A stretch of 64,000 nt of DNA from Scyliorhinus canicula (taxonomy: Eukaryota), in assembly GCF_902713615.1 (NCBI RefSeq), contig NC_052161.1, forward strand, positions 86,716,236 to 86,780,235. Reading direction: 5' to 3'. Within the stretch, counting starts at the first letter, position 1. Every line of letters begins with the position of its first letter. The notes under the pieces are model-generated. The model was not told where the DNA came from. It did no database searches and saw only the letters and a program-made list of their open reading frames with translations. Positions 2,674 through 55,153 of this stretch are shown one piece after another. Made by a program: the position numbers and the translations under genes.

Positions 2674-5600
2674 TGTTGTGATAACCACTGTAGATATGCA
2701 TACTTGCAATAGGGGGAAAGTCAGGGAACCAAGAGGTGAAGGAATCAGTGGGAAGCGTAGCTGCTTAGGATTACAAAAAATCACGAAAAGACAGAGCTCA
2801 GGAGAGGTTACGATAGTCCCCATCTCACAAAATATGACACAGTGTATGGAAAGGCTCAGTAAACCAAGGTCCACCACACTAAGAAAACAAAAAGGGACAG
2901 TCAATAGGGAATTAAAGGTGCTATATTTAAATGCCCGCAGTGTACGGAACAAGGTAGATGAACTTGTGGCCCAGATTGTGACTGGCAGGTATGATGTGGT
3001 AGGCATCACAGAGACGTGGTTGCAGGGGGTTCAGGACTGGCAGTTAAACATCCAGGTATTTACAACCTATCGAAAAGACAGAGAGGTGGGTAGAGGGGGC
3101 GGGGTTGCCTTGTTAATTTGAAATTAAATTAAATCAATAGCACTAAACGACATAGGGTCAGACGATGTGGAGTCTGTGTGGGTAGAGTTGAGGAACCACA
3201 AAGGCAAAAAACCATAATGGGAGTTATGTACAGGCCTCCTGACAGTGGTCAGGACCAGGGGCACAAAATGCACCACAAAATAGAAAGGGCATGTCAGAAA
3301 GGCAAGGTCACAGTGATCATGGGGGACTTCAATATGCAGGTGGACTGGGTAAATAATGTTGCCAGTGGACCCAAAGAAAGGGAATTCATTGAATGTTTAC
3401 AGGATGGCTTTTTGGAACAGCTTGTGATGGAGCCCACGAGGGAACAGGCTATTCTGGACTTAGTGTTATGTAATGAGCCAGAATTGATAAAAGATCTTAA
3501 AGTAAGGGAACACTTAGGAAGCAGTGATCATAATATGGTAGAATTCAGTCTGCAATTTGAAAGAAGGAAGGTAGAATCAGATGTAAAGGTTTTACAGTTA
3601 AATAAAGGTAATTACAGGCGCATGAGGGAGGAACTGACGAAAATCGACTGGAAGCAGAGCCTAGTGGGAAAGACAGTAGAACAGCAATGGCAGGAGTTTC
3701 TGGGAGTAATTGAGGACACAGTGCAGAGGTTCATCACAAAGAAAAGAAAGGTTATCAGAGGGAGGATTAGGCAGCCATGGCTGACAAAGGAAGTCAGGAA
3801 ATGCATCAAGGCAAAAGAGAGAGCCTATAATGTGGCAAAGAGTAGTGGGAAGTCAGAAGATTGGGAAGGCTACAAAAACAAACAGAGGATAACAAAGAGA
3901 GAAATAAGGAAGGAGAGGATCAAATATGAAGGTAGGCTAGCCAGTAACATTAGGAATGATAGTAAAAGTTTCTTTAAATACATTAAAAACAAACGGGAGG
4001 CAAAAGTAGACATTGGGCCGCTCCAAAATAACGCTGGTAATCTAGTGATGGGAGACAAGGAAATAGCTGAGGAACTTAATAAGTACTTTGCGTCAGTCTT
4101 CACAGTAGAAGACATGAGTAATATCCCAACAATTCAGGAAAGTCAGGGGGCAGAGTTGAATATGGTTGCCATCACAAAGGAGAAAGTGCTAGAGAAACTA
4201 AAAGGTCTGAAAATTGATAAATCTCCGGGCCCAGATGGGCTACATCCTAGAGTTCTAAAGGAGATAACTGAAGAAGTAGTGGAGGCGTTAGTTACGATCT
4301 TTCAAAAGTCACTGGAATCAGGGAAAGTCCCAGAGGATTGGAAAATTGCTGTTGTAACCCCCCTGTTCAAGAAGGGAACAAGAAAAAAGATGGAAAATTA
4401 TAGGCCAATTAGCCTAACCTCGGTTGTTGGCAAAATTCTAGAATCCATCGTTAAGGATGAGATTTCTAAATTCTTGGAAGTGCAGGGTCGGATTAGGACA
4501 AGTCAGCATGGATCTAGTAAGGGGAGGTCGTGCCTGACAAACCTGTTAGAGTTCTTTGAAGAGATAACAAATAGGTTAGACCAAGGAGAGCCAATGGATG
4601 TTATCTATCTTGACTTCCAAAAGGCCTTTGACAAGGTGCCTCACGGGAGACTGCTGAGTAAAATAAGGGCCCATGGTATTCGAGGCAAGGTACTAACATG
4701 GATTGACGATTGGCTGTCAGACAGAAGGCAGAGAGTTGGGATAAAAGGTTCTTTTTTGGAATGGCAACCGGTGACAAGTGGTGTCCCGCAGGGTTCAGTG
4801 TTGGGGCCACAGCTGTTCTCTTTATATATTAACGATCTAGATGACGGGACTGGGGGCATTCTGGCCAAGTTTGCCGATGATACAAAGATAGGTGGAGGGG
4901 CAGGTAGTATTGAGGAGGTGGGGAGACTGCAGAAAGATTTAGGCAGTTTAGGAGAATGGTCCAAGAAGTGGCTGATGAAATTCAACGTGGGCAAGTGCGA
5001 GGTCTTGCACTTTGGAAAAAAGAATAGAGGCATGGACTATTTTCTAAACTGTGACAAAATTCATAATGCTAAAGTGCAAAGGGACTTGGGAGTCCTAGTC
5101 CAGGATTCTCTAAAGGTAAACTTGCAGGTTGAGTCCGTAATTAAGAAAGCAAATGTAATGTTGTCATTTATCTCAAGAGGCTTGGAATATAAAAGCAGGG
5201 ATGTACTTCTGAGGCTTTATAAAGCACTAGTTAGGCCCCATTTAGAATACTGTGAGCAATTTTGGGCCCCACACCTCAGGAAGGACATACTGGCACTGGA
5301 GCGGGTCCAGCGGAGATTCACACGGATGATCCCAGGAATGGTAGGCCTAACATACGATGAACGTCTGAGGATTGTGGGATTATATTCATTGGAGTTTAGG
5401 AGGTTGAGGGGAGATCTAATAGAAACTTACAAGGTAATGAATGGCTTTGATAGGATGGACGTAAGGAAGTTGTTTCCATTAGCAGGGGAGACTAGGACGC
5501 GGGGGCACAGCCTTAGAATAAAAGGGAGTCACTTTAGAACAGAGATGAGGAGAAATTTCTTCAGCCAGAGAGTGGTAGGTCTGTGGAATTCATTGCCACA

Positions 5601-41234: not shown

Positions 41235-41360
41235 CGGTTCCCTTTCCCCTGTGAGGACCGGCCTCTCCGTGGCTGATGGGGGCAGTAACGAGGCAACGGC
41301 GGTAGCGGGCGTTCCGTGCTCGTGTAATCATTGCTGTTGCAAAGTGGCTGGTTCGAGAGT
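41235..41360 (-). CDS. CD4: CD4 cytoplasmic exon 2: LSNQPLCNSNDYTSTERPLPPLPRYCPHQPRRGRSSQGKGN
   Basis: Acceptor cccctctcag|, donor CG|gtgagt, phase 2/2. Contains the CxH motif. Confidence 0.85.
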
Positions 41361-44184: not shown

Positions 44185-44312
44185 CCGCCTCCTGGCTCTC
44201 TTTGCCAGGCAGATGCCAATCAGCGTGAAGATGACAATCAGGAGGAGTAAAGAGGCTGATGTCCCGATCATCAGGATTAAATTGTCCTTCCCGAAGATAC
44301 TGACAACCGGCT
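44185..44312 (-). CDS. CD4: CD4 transmembrane exon: (E)PVVSIFGKDNLILMIGTSASLLLLIVIFTLIGICLAKRARRR
   Basis: Acceptor ttcctgttctgtgtag|, donor CGG|gtaagg, phase 1/0. Hydrophobic span, juxtamembrane Cys and basic stop-transfer cluster. Confidence 0.92.
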
Positions 44313-46028: not shown

Positions 46029-46286
46029 CTGTGACATTGAGGGTCAATGTTGCTGCTCCCAATCTGGCGTTGTTTTGAATGATTTCACAGGTCCATACTC
46101 CAGCTTCGTGCTTGGTGACCTTGATGAGGTTGATGGTGAGAGAATCCTTTCCTTGTGCAATCCCCCCTTTACTGGACATGTTGCTGTGTCTCCACTGAAT
46201 CTGGGTGGATGGGGAATGATGGGAGATCAGGCAACTGAGAGAGATGTTCGAACCAATGATGATCATTCCGGGCTCGCTGACACTCA
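46029..46286 (-). CDS. CD4: CD4 Ig domain D4 (C2-type): VSVSEPG..LSC..IQW..AGVWTCEI..LNVT
   Basis: Phase 1/1, ag/gt boundaries, WxC in place of YxC as typical of CD4/LAG-3 D2 and D4. Confidence 0.93.
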
Positions 46287-46731
46287 CTGAGGGAGAGATC
46301 AAGACCAGGGTCAAAAATATAGAAACAGATCTTCACCAAAGTTCCGATACACTATCTGTCTCTCTCTGTATGTCTCCATCTCTGTCTGTCTCACTCTCTC
46401 TCTCTGTCTCACTCTCTCTCTCTCTGTCTCTTTCTATCTCTCTCTCTCTATTTATCTTTCACTTTGTCTCTCTCTCTCTGTCTGTCTCGCTCGGCCTCTC
46501 ATTCTCTTTGCTCTGTTTCTTTCCATCTCTGTCTCTTTCTTTCTTGATCTGTCTATCTCTCTCTCTGTTTCTGTGTGTCTGTGTGTGTGTATGTGTGTCT
46601 CTCTCTCTCCCTTTCTCTCACAATATCTCTCTGTCACTCTCTCTATCACTCTCTCTCTCTATCTTTTTCTGCCTGTGCCTTCTCAAGACCTCCAGACTTC
46701 CCAGATTGTTTCAGTGACGGGTCATCGGTCA

Positions 46732-47550
46732 TCACTTTGTCACTCCTGCCAAACCATCTGAACAGGGATTCGCGGCTTTTTCATCGAGCTCGCCATTTTC
46801 TCTGCAAAATAACTTGCCGAACATTTGATAGCCGTACTCATCTGGTTTACCCTCTGCTCTCGTGAATTCCTCATCATACTCATGGCCTCCGTGGACCTCA
46901 GCTTGGTACTCATCATTCGAGTTGCTATCAACTGCACAGACTTCTTCTGTGAAGTACGACTTTGCATATGGAATTACATAGTCACGCTGGAGGCCGCCCA
47001 GTCCAAAGTCAGCTGCCAATTTTGTTGCAAACTTCTCTTTAACAGTCCATGCTGTGAAATTTTAGGAGGACTGAAGAAATTGAAGAACAAATCATTTGGT
47101 ATTGTTCCCGCAACCGTTTTGCGAGTACTCCTGCCCTGATGTTTTGTCTTTGTCTTAATAGATCGCAGAGTGACATTTCTTCCTTTCTTCCAGTCAATCT
47201 GGCATCCCGTGCAACCCGTGATTTCTGGTTCGTCAAAGAATTGAAGCTAATCAGGCCGCGATTCCATCTGGTATTCTTTCGGAATAACGTTATTGGTGAA
47301 ATACTCCTTTGGCTCAAAGTTAAACTCCGGAGTGAAGCTTCTTGGCTGTTCAAACTCTGAACATTTAATGTTTACATCTCGCAGATGCTTTAATGTGGGC
47401 ACATTGTGCTCCTGTATCATGCCACGGAGTATGTCCACATTCCTGAAGACTGGACCAAAAGTCTGGAATTTCATTTGGCTGCTGCATTTCTTCCTTCACT
47501 TTGTCATTGCATGTGTGGAGATTTACTTGTTTTCGATCAATGCAGTCCAT
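46732..47550 (-). pseudogene. Intronless NAP1 (nucleosome assembly protein)-like ORF, disrupted
   Basis: IPDFW, VFRNVD..MIQEH..LKHL, FNFEPKEYFTN, PEITGCTGCQIDWKKGRNVT, FFNFFSPP, LAADF..VIP..YFTEE. One stop (47247) and two frameshifts. ATG in good context at 47550. Confidence 0.9.
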
Positions 47551-48092
47551 CTTGTTGAGAGTTGCAGAATTCGCTGGACAATTCGCTGTCTGTAACGAAA
47601 GACCACTCAACCAGGTTCAGGGCCTCACATGCGTCCGCTCCTAATATGGACTCTCTCTTTGTGTCCACACTGGCGAATTGCACGATGTGACTCCGATTGT
47701 GCACCAATGCTTCGAGCTCACATATCCCCAGCGTTTCAATCGCATTCTGTGCATACTCAATCAGCCATTTTGGTCGATCAAAAACTATTGGTTGAAATCT
47801 AAGGCGGTTCAAATCGGACATGCGTTGCAATGATTAAGTCAGTGCACCAAAGAATGTCTAGTTTGTGACTATTTAAGATTTATTTTATTATTGTAACATG
47901 GGTAGAAAACAATACTAATACTAACGAACTGTAAACTGTTAACAACTAGAATATGAGAAAACACGACTATCCACCAGGACTTCTCACTCAGACTCCCTGA
48001 GGCTACAGTGTCACCTGGTGTAGTTCTACTGCCACCTGCTGGTTGGAGGCCGAACATATTAGCATACAGAATTGCTTATCCATAATATTACA
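47537..48092 (-). mobile_element. LTR (~47855-48092) joined directly to a Mag-like protease fragment, upstream of the NAP1-like ORF
   Basis: TGTAATA start, AATAAA, CTCF-type CCAGCAGGTGGCAG. ETLGICEL..SILGADACEALNLV resembles the protease region at 63050-63250. Confidence 0.65.
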
Positions 48093-48219: not shown

Positions 48220-51200
48220 TGGGGTGAATGTAACTCCATAATTCACACTGTATTGTATATACATGAGACCATGCATTTGTTAGCGCCGTTGCGTTGCCCG
48301 ACCACTAGGGGGAGTAGCGCTGGGAATGCTTAGGAGTTTGTACAGGGCTCCACTCTTGGCTCCGCCCACGACTCCTCCCCCTGGACTGCTGTATAAATAC
48401 CAATGCTCAGAGCCAGTCGTTCAGTTCATCGAGAGTTCAACGCGGAACAGGCTGGCTCTGTTGTAAGTAGATTAAAACCACTGTTTATATCTTAAAGCAC
48501 GTGTCTAGTGAATTGATGGTTCCATCAATTTAATCTACTTAAGGAACAGTCAGGATCAATCATGGAATCAGCCCTCAAGCCTGAGCGACTGGAACTCGAC
48601 CCGCAGGATGCAGAGGCAAAATAAATTTTTTCTGATTGGCTGCGGTGTTTTAAAGCCTACCTGGCGGAAGCAAGCACAGCCGAAACAACAGAGGAGCAGA
48701 AACTGAGCCTACTGCACGCGAGGGTGAGCCACAGAATCTCTACTCAACTAAACTGCGCCGGTTCGAATACTGAAGCCCTAGCGCTACTCGACAAAATGTA
48801 TGTAAGGCCTGTAAATGAGGTCTACACGCGACACGTGTTTACTACTCGCCTCCAGCGGCCTACGGAATCGCTCGCAGAATTCCTGAGCGAGCTTAAAACT
48901 TTATCGAGTGACTGTAATTACCAGGCGGTTACCGCAGCAGAACATAGAGAACTTGCTGTATGCGATGCCTTTGTTGCGGGCCTTAGGTCAAATTACGTGC
49001 GGCAACGACTGCTGGAAAAGGGGGCCCTAAATCTTGAAGCGACTGTTGAACTTGCTACGACTATGGAGGTCTCATTTCGCAGCCTCACCTCGTTCCCCGC
49101 GGACCTCACCATGGACCCCCGACCAGCGATTCCACCTGGCCTGCGCCGCGCGGCCGCCCAGCCACAATGCTGCCCCAGCCTGCCAATTTTGCAGCCAGAA
49201 TCAGCACTCGCAGCAGCACTGCCCGGCCCGCAATGCGACCTGCAGCAGCTGCGGGCAAAAAGGACACTATGCCAGAGTGTGTCTGGCGAAGAATGCCCTA
49301 GCCTCTAACCCCTCCCATGGCTCAAAGCACTCGTTCCCTGAATTCACAGGCCGGCAGGCCCCAAAATGCTGCAGCGTGTATGCCGACTCCGCCCCCACCC
49401 GACATGTGCGACTCATGGGCGCGGCCATCTTGGCAATCCTCCTCCATGCAGCCGGCCATGTGCAGCTCATGGGGGCGGCCATCTTGGCAATCCTCCTCCA
49501 TGCAGCCGGCCATGTGCGACTCATGGGGGCGGCCATCTTGGCAATCCTCCTCCATGCGGCCGGCCGTGTGCGACTCATGGGGGCGGCCATCTTGAGATCC
49601 ATCCCCTCCAAACTCTGAAACTCACCTCGACGACTACGAACTCAGAGGGCAGTCATCACGGGGCCACTCCAGCACAGCTGATCGAGCCGCCGACGACCCG
49701 CAACTCAGCGCAGTCACTCTGGACGAATCGCGCCCGAAGCATCTGCGAAACTCGATGGCGACGGTACAAATCAACAGGTACAGCACGCCGTGCCTTTTCG
49801 ACTCCGGGAGCACTGAGAGCTTCATACACCCAGATCTGATTAGACGTTGTTCGCTCCCCGTTCCCCGTTTTCCCCGCGCGGCAAACTATCTGCCTCGCTT
49901 CGGGCTCCCACTCTGTCCAGGTCCAAGGGCGCACTGCCGCGACGCTCACAATCCAAGGCGCTAGCTATGCCAAATTCCAGCTCTATGTCCTGCCCGAACT
50001 CTGCGCCCCACTCTTATTAGGCCTTGATTTCCAGTGTAATCTCAAGAGTCTCACCCTCAGTTTCGGCGGACCCCTACCCCCACTCACTATCTGCAGCCTA
50101 GCCACGTTGCGAATCTCCCCCCCTCCTCTCTGTGCCAACCTCACCCCGGACTGTAAACCCGTAGCCACTTGCAGCAGGCGGTACAGCCTGCAGGATAGGG
50201 TGTTCATCCGATTGGAGGTCCAAAGGCTCCTCAGTGAGGGGATCATAGAGGCCAGCAACAGCCCCTGGAGAGCTCAGGTGCTGGTCGTCAAGACCGGGGG
50301 GAAATTCCGCATTGTTGTCGACTATAGTCAGACCATAAATAGATTTATGCTCCTCAACGCGTATCCCCTCCCCAGGATTGCAGACATGGTAAATCAGATC
50401 GCCCAGCATCGGCTATTTTCCACGGTGGATCTGAAGTCTGCATACCACCAGCTCCCAATCCGTCCAGAGGACCGCCACTACACGGCATTCGAGGCCGATG
50501 GCCGCCTCTTCCATTTCCTCCGGGTTCCCTTCGGCGTCACTAACGGGGTTTCGGTGTTCCAACAAGCAATGGACCGAATGGTGGACCAACACGGGCTGCG
50601 GGTCACGTTCCCGTACTTGGATAACGTTACCATCTGCGGCTATGATCAGCAGGACCACAACGCCAACCTCCACCGTTTTCTCCAGACGGCTTAGAAACTA
50701 AACCTCACCTACAACAAGGAGAAATGCGTTTTCCGCACGACCAGACTAGCCATCCTCGGCTGTGTCGTGGAAAACGGAGTCCTGGGCCCCGACCCGGACC
50801 GTATGCGCCTCCTCTTAGAACTCCCCCTCCCCCATTGCCCCAAGGCCCTCAAACGGTGCTTGGGATTCTTTTCGTATTACGCCCAGTGGGTCCCTCAATA
50901 TGCGGACAAAGCCCGCCCACTATTTAAGGCCACACGATTTCACCTGTCAGCTGAGGCGCGACAGGCCTTCAATTGCATCAAGGAGGACATCGCCAAAGCG
51001 GCCATGCGGGCGGTGGACGAATCCACTCCATTTCAGGTTAAGAGCGACGCCTCAGAGGTAGCTCTAGCAGCCACTTTAAATCAGGCAGGGAGACCAGTCG
51101 CATTCTTCTCCCGTACCCTATCCGCTTCGGAACTCCGACACTCCTCAGTCGAAAAAGAAGCACAAGCCATTGTGGAGGCTATACGTTACTGGAGGCACTA

Positions 51201-52845
51201 CCTCGCAGGGAGGAGGTTCACCCTCATCACCGACCAAAGATCAGTTGCCTTCATGTTTGACAACTCGCAAAGGGGCAAGATTAAAAACGATAAAATCCTG
51301 CGGTGGAGGATCGAACACCCCACCGATCGCTATGATATTAAGTATCGACCGGGGAAGCTCAACGAGCCCCCAGATGCCCCCAGATGCCCTATCCTGCGGG
51401 ACATGCGCCAGCGCGCAGATCGACCACCTGAAAATCATCCACAAGGCCCACCTGGTCAAGGCTTCTAGGCCCTTTGAACGCCTCGCGATCGATTTCAAAG
51501 GGCCACTCCCCTCAACTAACAGGAACGTCATAGATGAGTTCTCCCGCTTCCTATTTGCTATTCCGTGCCCCGACATGACCTCCCACACAGTCATTAGGGC
51601 CCTGCATAGTATCTTCACCCTGTTTGGTTTCCCCAGCTACGTGCACAACGACAGGGGTGCGTCCTTCATGAGTGACGAGCTGCGTCAGTACCTGCTCGAC
51701 AAGGGCATTGCCTCGAGCAGGACTACCAGCTACAACCCCAGAGGGAACGGGCAGGTGGAGAGGGAGAATGCGACGGTCTGGAAGACCATCCTACTGACCC
51801 TCCGGTCCAGGAATCTCCAAGTCTGCCATTGGCAGGAAGTCCTCCCAGACGCGCTCCACGCTATTAGGTCCCTCTTATGCACAGCGACCAATCAGACCCC
51901 TCATGAGAGGCTCTTCATTTTTTCCAGGGGCACTACCACGGGGGTCTCTCTCCCGGCATGGCTGAAGACACCGGGCCCTGTACTCCTCAGGAAGCACGTC
52001 AGGGCGCACAAAACTGACCCCCTTGTAGAGAAGGTGCGCCTGCTTCACTCCAACCACCAGTACGCCTTCATCGAGTTCCCCGACGGCCGTCAGGACACCG
52101 TATCCCTCCGGGACCTTGCACCCGCCGGGTCCAGCATCCCCTCTATCACTACAGATGCACCCCTCACCCTACACCCGATCCTGCCGCCCCCTCGGGCTCC
52201 CGAGCCCACTAGCTCACTGCATTGGTTCCGCGCAACCCAGCTGCCCCCACACGCTCCCGAGCCCACTGAGCCCACTAGCTTGCTCCATCTGTTCCGCGTG
52301 CCCGCACCGGCTAACCCCCAGCGCCCTCAGTCCCCAGTCGAACCAGACGGGTCTGAAACTCGGACGAGATCTTCCCTGGAGTCGGCCATCGTACCCCAAC
52401 CCACAACACCCGTCCAGCCACCGCAAGTAGCTGCAACCCTGGTGCTCCGCAGATCACAGCGGACAGTCCGACCATCGGACAGACTCAATTTATGAACCAC
52501 CACCCCCGCTGGACTTGATTTTTTTGTAGGGGGTGAATGTGGTGAATGTAACTCCGTAATTCACACTGTATTGTATATACATGAGACCATGCATTTGTAA
52601 GCTCAGTTGCGTTGCCCGACCACTAGGGGGAGTAGCGCTGGGAATGCTTAGGAGTTTGAACAGGGCTCCACCCTTGGCTCCGCCCATGACTCCTCCCCCT
52701 GGACTGCTGTATAAATACCAATGCTCAGAGCCAGTTGTTCAATTCATCGAGAGTTCAACGCGGAACAGGCTGGCTCTGTTGTAAGTAGATTAAAACCACT
52801 GTTCATATCTTAAAGCACGTGTCTAGTGAATTGATAGTTCCATTA
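48220..52845 (+). mobile_element. Full-length degenerate Gypsy element B2 in the CD4 D3-D4 intron (antisense to CD4)
   Basis: 308-bp LTRs at 48220-48527 and 52538-52845, TSD ACACT, stops in gag and RT, deletion of the IN HHCC region near 51430. Confidence 0.95.
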
Positions 52846-54967: not shown

Positions 54968-55153
54968 TGAAATGAAAAATTGAAAATCGCTTATTGTCAC
55001 GAGTAGGCTTCAATGAAGTTACTGTGAAAAGCCCCTAGTCGCCACATTCCGGCGTGTGTCCGGGGAGGCTGGTACGGGAATTGAACCGTGCTGCTGGCCT
55101 GCTTGGTCTGCATTAAAAGCCAGCGATTTAGCCTGGTGAGCTAAACCAGCCCC
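54968..55153 (-). mobile_element. tRNA-derived SINE, with a second copy at 56030-56213
   Basis: GGGGCTGGTTTAGC head, GGTTCAATTCC B box, shared 3' tail. Both copies are in the same orientation. Confidence 0.8.

Follow-up and report, generated by a model that had tools for sequence, protein, structure and literature searches.

An intronless reading frame with a NAP histone-chaperone domain lies on the minus strand of the window (the whole 64,000-nt stretch of Scyliorhinus canicula DNA analysed here), behind an LTR and a fragment of a Gypsy protease, and it raises the question of how a nucleosome chaperone came to stand there. A preliminary description, made from the letters alone, favoured an LTR retrotransposon lineage that had captured the chaperone over a chance retrocopy in a dead element. 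Our genome-wide comparisons bear this out: the same protease/NAP junction recurs, with paired LTRs, a primer-binding site (PBS), target-site duplications (TSDs), one capture point and purifying selection. The features of the locus are as follows.

47821..48092, minus strand: LTR of a sister Gypsy family (gag-PR-RT-RNase H; NAP not seen there), with 13 nt missing from the 3' end
47567..47823, minus strand: aspartic protease, C-terminal two thirds; the catalytic motif lay in the deleted part
46867..47566, minus strand: captured NAP1L1 segment in spliced form, from within exon 5 to within exon 13, with earmuff, NLS hairpin and acidic tail
46660..46790, minus strand: start of the captured ATF7IP segment, ~25-40 codons, ended by a GA microsatellite
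46029..46288, minus strand: CD4-like Ig exon downstream of the relic-bearing intron (Pfam Ig_3, E 2.8e-9)
44185..44312, minus strand: CD4-like transmembrane exon

The relic and its host gene

The NAP domain of the window is split between two frames (Pfam PF00956; 47250-47495, E 2e-16, and 46977-47246, E 6e-18) and, over 47566-46867, can be aligned along its full length to host NAP1L1 exons 5-13, without introns, as the preliminary description had read it; the protease fragment that it had recognised ahead of NAP is the C-terminal part of the enzyme (47823-47567). The copy had been called dead on account of one stop and two frameshifts, and we find that stop (47247-47249) and two frame changes, one near 47453 and one near 47029, together with another near 47542. 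It has neither a TSD nor a 3' LTR, as was already noted, and the conserved ATF7IP motifs are missing as well. By its sequence, the window copy is a deleted, broken relic.

Both ends of the reading frame have to be revised. The frame had been given a start of its own, at an ATG at 47550. In the closest relatives of the window copy, L023 and L024, the protease runs into NAP in one frame, and relative to L022-L024 the window has an 8-nt gap near 47542. Judged by this alignment, the ATG is not the element's start and arises from a small deletion, and NAP, rather than being a separate ORF, is part of a Gag-PR-NAP-ATF7IP polyprotein. The stop at 46732 is not the original end either, since it comes after a further frame change near 46775 (relative to L022 and L024). 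The acidic tail had been described as different; it runs on into a second captured gene, ATF7IP, which the preliminary description had missed. A direct comparison of the window with host ATF7IP gives a weak match; the window aligns continuously with L022-L024, which carry the ATF7IP motif, down to about 46642-46607.

The LTR is genuine and is not the element's own. It begins with TG, and solo relatives (L093, L097, L098 and L103) are flanked by exact 5-bp TSDs. A search with this LTR returned at least 40 matches (40 scored of 966 candidates), with 82-86% identity outside three local paralogs, and led to a sister gag-PR-RT-RNase H family that has its own TSDs, PBS and polypurine tract, with primer and purine signals similar to those of the NAP-carrying family; RT and RNase H are found in L105, L108 and L116, and RT in L110. 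In the 98% identical paralog L021 the sister-family LTR lies 3.5 kb further upstream, with gag in between, so that it was a local deletion that joined the LTR to the protease in the window. The 3.5-kb deletion is common to two of the three copies of the CD4 region and absent from the third, and could serve to order the duplications.

The preliminary description placed the relic in sense orientation within a CD4 intron, and the two exons listed above (46029-46288 and 44185-44312) are indeed spliced together in one RNA contig; a CxH exon lies near 41326. We call the gene CD4-like, because its name rests on a published account of the locus (PMC10768021) and not on a protein match: a direct match to CD4 was not found in a comparison with PDB entries, which gave generic Ig hits only. 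According to that account, S. canicula has a single intact CD4 besides two pseudogene fragments (PMC10768021), which fits the three local paralogs of the relic. The CD4-like region occurs three times on contig C16, at 86.45 (L002/L111), 86.54 (L021) and 86.76 Mb (the window), with 98-99% identity. The same intron also holds a separate plus-strand Gypsy element at ~48240-51470 (gag 48625-49308, RT and RNase H 49840-51468), which stands head to head with the relic and whose family is also nested in the NAP-family copies L035 and L037. Elsewhere in the window, ARAGORN called a tRNA-Ile(AAT) on the minus strand at 55063-55152, in a repeat-rich stretch; this call is probably spurious.

A non-autonomous Gypsy family with two host segments

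The preliminary description had suggested a genome-wide search for the protease/NAP junction, with a single-copy junction speaking for a chance insertion. The junction was found again on many contigs. A DNA search with the window relic gave at least 46 matches (40 scored of 2011 candidates), which outside the local paralogs start at the protease or further in and never at the LTR, and a NAP profile search gave at least 145 (144 scored of 2050 candidates). Among 40 loci picked by the distal tail alone, 30 have NAP, 33 the ATF7IP piece, 25 gag and 23 the protease. The copies form a ladder of subfamilies, and the family is shared with a second species, Scyliorhinus torazame. The window relic belongs to an old, high-copy, non-autonomous Gypsy LTR family.

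The element reads, in order, LTR, tRNA-Leu primer site, gag with a CCHC knuckle, protease, NAP, tail, polypurine tract and LTR, with a median length of 3.94 kb. Its LTRs (TG..CA) are about 260-350 bp long. Copies with paired LTRs, another suggested check, are present: we found 30 candidate pairs, 20 of them with a well-defined 3' end, and 12 of these 20 have a 5-bp TSD with at most one mismatch (chance expectation 1.6%). The two LTRs of a pair are 0.83-0.91 identical, which indicates that all copies are old. The PBS is complementary to tRNA-Leu(TAA), and ARAGORN called three of the five pattern hits. The CCHC knuckle is intact in 31 of 62 scorable copies. The protease DTG survives in 12 of 53: 7/18 early and 5/16 middle copies, and 0/7 window-clade and 0/12 late ones.

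Neither gag nor protease was matched by Pfam on the family ORFs tried. Both are homologous to their counterparts in RT-bearing Gypsy loci, the protease with 29-44% protein identity to that of 19 of 30 such loci. With the RT of the sister family as query, 6 of 81 stretches matched, in every case outside the element or in a nested one, so the element itself lacks RT, and none of the 30 RT loci qualified as a helper with more than about 70% DNA identity over long gag alignments. From its gag N-terminus the family may be of the Mag clade, a label that the preliminary description had also used; the sister-family RT is closest to that of Ty3 in a comparison among PDB entries that held no Mag reference. 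The NAP element of L078 is closely preceded by an RT on the opposite strand (~3448-3963, oriented), which has 42% identity to the RT of the sister family. Searches of protein databases for gag-NAP fusions turned up only the S. torazame model P0007; since annotation of such elements is rare, this result is weak for other sharks. One ORF of the family is identical to a database protein of S. canicula.

The donor of the NAP segment is NAP1L1. Early copies are 79-90% identical to NAP1L1 exons 5-12, without introns, and 67-80% identical to NAP1L4. The earmuff domain (PF00956) is present in family copies, and family NAP matches human NAP1L1 chains with E 1e-91. In a protein tree, as the preliminary description had proposed to examine, all 24 element rows, including three from S. 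torazame, cluster together (100/100) within the NAP1L1 sequences of chondrichthyans, with poor resolution among the hosts.

The extent of the segment is shared across the family. The preliminary description had found the NAP1 N-terminus missing, and all 107 matches to full-length shark NAP1L1 begin at residue 128 or later; a query with the N-terminal NAP helix found only four exons of two host genes, NAP1L1 and NAP1L4. The family protein is without residues about 1-127, including the N-terminal helix by which NAP1 proteins dimerise (PMC9128123, PMC13255070). In 55 of 81 stretches NAP starts at nt 27-40 of host exon 5, and in the tail-chosen sample 16 of 21 start at nt 28-37. The joint lies a few codons past the end of the protease, where RT-bearing relatives go on into pol, and 35 of 73 scorable copies, including L023 and L024, hold protease and NAP in frame (p=0.007). 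On these alignments, we conclude that NAP was taken once, from a spliced mRNA, directly after the protease.

Two other routes of capture were considered and rejected. None of the 121 stretches contains pieces of NAP1L1 exons 1-4, exon 14, the start of the 3' UTR or a 5' part of ATF7IP. Capture in the style of a circular RNA fails on the missing 5' ATF7IP part, exons 1-4 and exon 14, and an L1-type processed pseudogene on the common 5' breakpoint, the missing exon 14 and 3' UTR start, and the flanking LTRs.

Past NAP, the frame continues into a sequence that resembles ATF7IP, with E 1.9e-13 to the Heterodontus protein and further matches to those of Rhinoraja and Callorhinchus. Host ATF7IP is a single locus; its codons about 214-372 match four early copies at 72-76% of nucleotides, and blastn to the host gene finds matches in 34 of 81 stretches. 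The piece stops at an exon end, at codon 372, and the SETDB1-binding domain of ATF7IP (PMC12167477) begins at residue 408 in the Heterodontus protein; the Pfam model of this coiled coil, ATF7IP_BD, had no match on the tail. The ATF7IP piece lies within one exon, so that it may, but need not, come from mRNA. In L079 a purine-rich stretch at the joint between NAP1L1 and ATF7IP can be aligned to both donors. Natural single frames lead from NAP into the ATF7IP piece in L029 and P0001-P0003, although across the family only 24 of 56 copies still have NAP and the ATF7IP motif in one frame (p=0.09).

Behind the ATF7IP piece, a distal tail of ~160 codons with a basic end is found family-wide (L075 1831-2310, minus strand) and may be a third capture. 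A search of the genome for its donor gave at least 162 matches (150 scored of 1211 candidates), which look like element copies, and found no host donor among them. The shark and skate ATF7IP isoforms P0155 and P0159 end in a DUF3504 or recombinase-like domain (Pfam), in line with a Crypton insertion that has reportedly occurred in ATF7IP.

Constraint on the captured segments

We measured selection on a fixed tree, dividing branch lengths at 0-fold sites by those at 4-fold sites, a check that the preliminary description had also named in the form of dN/dS. Across 74 copies the NAP ratio is 0.27 (0.20-0.36) on internal branches and 0.55 on terminal ones. Two further samples, whose choice was independent of NAP protein score, agree: 0.27 versus 0.52 in 16 DNA-chosen copies, and 0.29 versus 0.65 in 21 tail-chosen copies. 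A shifted-frame control gave internal ratios of 1.3-1.65. Gag blocks have ratios of 0.27-0.43 and the protease 0.52. NAP is under purifying selection on the internal branches of the element, with a constraint equal to that of Gag. Terminal ratios below 1 probably reflect, among other things, unsampled lineage steps and the score-based choice of copies. Taken over its full length, the tail shows weak constraint (0.60 internal versus 0.82 terminal; 8% of bootstraps overlap). The 74-copy set leaves out seven of the 81 stretches, four near-identical (L037, L021, L161 and L072) and three partial (L025, L026 and L031). Measured from the host gene, with 5 of the 81 left out, the elements have 0.2-1.4 synonymous and 0.09-0.27 replacement changes per site.

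Within the ATF7IP piece, one motif stands out. In 76 copies (again 5 of 81 stretches are left out), the segment with EIIPILEKLAP is kept in 54, including 18 of 25 late copies, whereas ATF7IP segments not overlapping it are kept in at most 29, including 3 of 25 late copies; the reverse-strand control gave 0. A putative SIM-like motif, defined by a pattern that we built from what we take to be the features of SIMs, is found in 35 of the 76, with 0 in the control, and, like the first motif, it persists in the most diverged copies. Both IIPILEKLAP and the SIM-like motif are conserved in the ATF7IP proteins of three other cartilaginous fishes. In L029, L033-L040, L163 and L177 the SIM-like motif seems to lie at two distances downstream of NAP, ~415 and ~470 nt, as if it had been duplicated in the middle subfamilies.

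The surfaces of the NAP domain have fared differently. The alpha-8 patch has 8 acidic residues in the host, 4.6 in early copies and 1.6-2.7 in later groups. The QEHDE patch (alpha4-5) and the acidic tail are largely kept, and the NLS hairpin retains 4.3-5 basic residues in all groups.

Possible roles of the cargo and related systems

ATF7IP is central to retroelement silencing by SETDB1 (PMC7354471). We think it somewhat probable that the NAP and ATF7IP cargo works in the nucleus as a decoy or chaperone and so weakens the silencing of element copies by ATF7IP, SETDB1 and SUMO, and we prefer this reading because both cargoes are chromatin factors, the SETDB1 anchor is left out and linear motifs are singled out. 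Two template switches inside particles would have produced the Gag-PR-NAP-ATF7IP chimera, which would then have spread non-autonomously, after the model of PMC5131818, with related RT-bearing Gypsy families giving RT and integrase in trans. As a monomer, the NAP earmuff, together with the NLS, the acidic tail and one acidic patch, would bind histones or basic parts of Gag or the RNP, and the IIPILEKLAP helix and SIM-like motif would occupy ATF7IP partners or SUMOylated silencing proteins without recruiting SETDB1. Histone binding itself may be lost, given the erosion of alpha-8 and the missing dimer helix; a single NAP monomer is reported to be enough in a C. elegans complex (PMC9128123). Of the two functions that the preliminary description had floated, cDNA chromatinisation and silencing evasion, evasion gains from the ATF7IP capture. 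Nucleosome assembly of the ordinary kind becomes less likely, since the domain has no dimer helix and has lost much of the acidic patch on alpha-8. An AlphaFold model of the natural NAP-ATF7IP frame reached a mean pLDDT of 37.8 with a 9-row alignment and was not used. A search for an intronless SUMO gave as its best hits tandem repeats of 76 residues, probably of polyubiquitin type. More tentatively, we suggest that an anti-silencing protein made by the element, consisting of the monomeric NAP1L1 domain and linear ATF7IP motifs minus the SETDB1 anchor, was kept through many subfamilies, and that selection marks IIPILEKLAP as a functional motif in the disordered region of ATF7IP.

Alternatively, NAP could serve the basic Gag/nucleocapsid RNP of the element, or the integration complex of a helper, as a built-in acidic chaperone or import adaptor. 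ATF7IP would then be a linker whose motifs aid localisation, for instance to SUMO-rich bodies, and would not counter silencing. HIV Rev, a basic RNA-binding protein, is chaperoned by human Nap1 via alpha5, alpha7 and alpha8 and the NLS domain (PMC13255070), purified LINE-1 ORF2p complexes contain NAP1L1 and NAP1L4 together with IPO7 (PMC5821459), the basic residues of the NLS hairpin are kept in all groups, and decay of the protease would keep NAP tethered to Gag. This reading nevertheless seems unlikely to us, since it gives no account of why the second capture was a silencing cofactor or why one motif was singled out, and the acidic surface has been eroded rather than strengthened.

The cargo could also be a passenger in the Gag frame, with selection acting against stops and misfolding of the polyprotein and not for any function of the cargo, in a lineage whose gag-protease elements would often take up host RNA. 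Template-switch capture of partial or multiple mRNAs is common and needs no benefit (PMC5131818), and functional surfaces have drifted. NAP, however, is as constrained as Gag and more so than the protease of the element itself (0.27 vs 0.52), and foldability alone would not lead one to expect motif-specific retention in a disordered segment; we regard this reading as improbable. Very improbable is an action at the RNA level, a knock-down of the host genes NAP1L1 and ATF7IP by small RNAs of the element. Each of the two donors is a chromatin or silencing factor, the identity of early copies to host NAP1L1 reaches 84%, and Drosophila telomeric elements with nxf2, piwi and aub set a precedent (PMC13534243). 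Synonymous change in excess of replacement change is nonetheless the reverse of what RNA mimicry should leave, the cargo is sense and in frame, and in the same fly study almost no host-targeting piRNAs are reported at about 79-82% identity (PMC13534243). Lastly, a chance NAP1L1 processed pseudogene in a dead element, or many independent retrocopies, might be suspected from the window copy alone, which has no TSD, no 3' LTR and an LTR from another family, and is refuted by the recurrence of the same junctions, by LTR pairs and TSDs, and by the monophyly of the NAP segments and the selection on them.

Capture of host mRNA by LTR elements is already known. LTR-mediated retrocopies (Tan et al. 2016, PMC5131818) likewise replace internal ORFs between LTRs with partial spliced mRNAs, and include multi-gene chimeras with microsimilarity at the joints and non-autonomous re-mobilisation; they are described as young and low-copy, whereas the shark family has at least 145 copies, a ladder of subfamilies and long purifying selection on its cargo. 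Maize Bs1 is similarly an LTR element with several host-gene segments in a chimeric frame (PMC13317346, PMC5131818), but is a plant element with metabolic and membrane cargo rather than chromatin factors. In the vertebrate LTR elements CrocERV29 and CrocERV31, captured mRNAs (KIT-ligand, nectin3) are also under purifying selection (PMC4299795). These are retroviral elements with few copies, in which whole ORFs for surface or signalling proteins were added or replaced env (PMC4299795); in the shark family, by contrast, pol was replaced in frame after the protease.

Cargo related to silencing is known as well. Fungal TET/JBP transposons carry a chromatin module (PMC12730594), and VANDAL elements the silencing-related VANC and KIU, that are thought to aid escape from silencing, and Drosophila telomeric elements have captured piRNA genes (PMC13534243). 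These are DNA transposons or LINEs of fungi, plants and flies, the fly ones acting as RNA; the shark family is instead a vertebrate LTR element with constraint at the protein level and a predicted function. Compared with host NAP1L1, with which it shares the earmuff, NLS hairpin, alpha4-5 QEHDE patch and acidic tail, family NAP lacks the dimer helix, has an eroded alpha-8 and is fused to Gag-PR and ATF7IP parts. We found no report of NAP1L1 or ATF7IP cargo in the literature, and the main text of the catshark genome paper contains neither 'nucleosome' nor 'NAP1' (PMC11979771); Repbase, Dfam or supplements may list the family under a plain name. As far as this literature shows, the chromatin-factor cargo appears to be new. 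Most of the known transposon-encoded modules against silencing come from plants, fungi and flies, and a vertebrate LTR family of this kind, if our reading is true, would be a rare fossil record of a silencing arms race. It would also offer leads on the specific ATF7IP motif singled out by the element, and on what a NAP domain can do without its dimer helix.

Family RNA is present at a low level, with peaks that are due to host mRNAs. Over 46755-47405 of the window there were no reads in three raw-read runs, in which the host CD4-like gene is itself hardly expressed, and one 157-nt contig of depth 2.75 in a fourth. Element copies have also entered the gene annotation of both Scyliorhinus species (models P0001-P0003, P0007, P0154, P0157, P0158, P0160 and P0161), where they are named NAP1L1 or form chimeras with cryptochrome-1-like and mL48; copies of the element are thus being annotated as NAP1L1 genes or spliced into other Scyliorhinus gene models.
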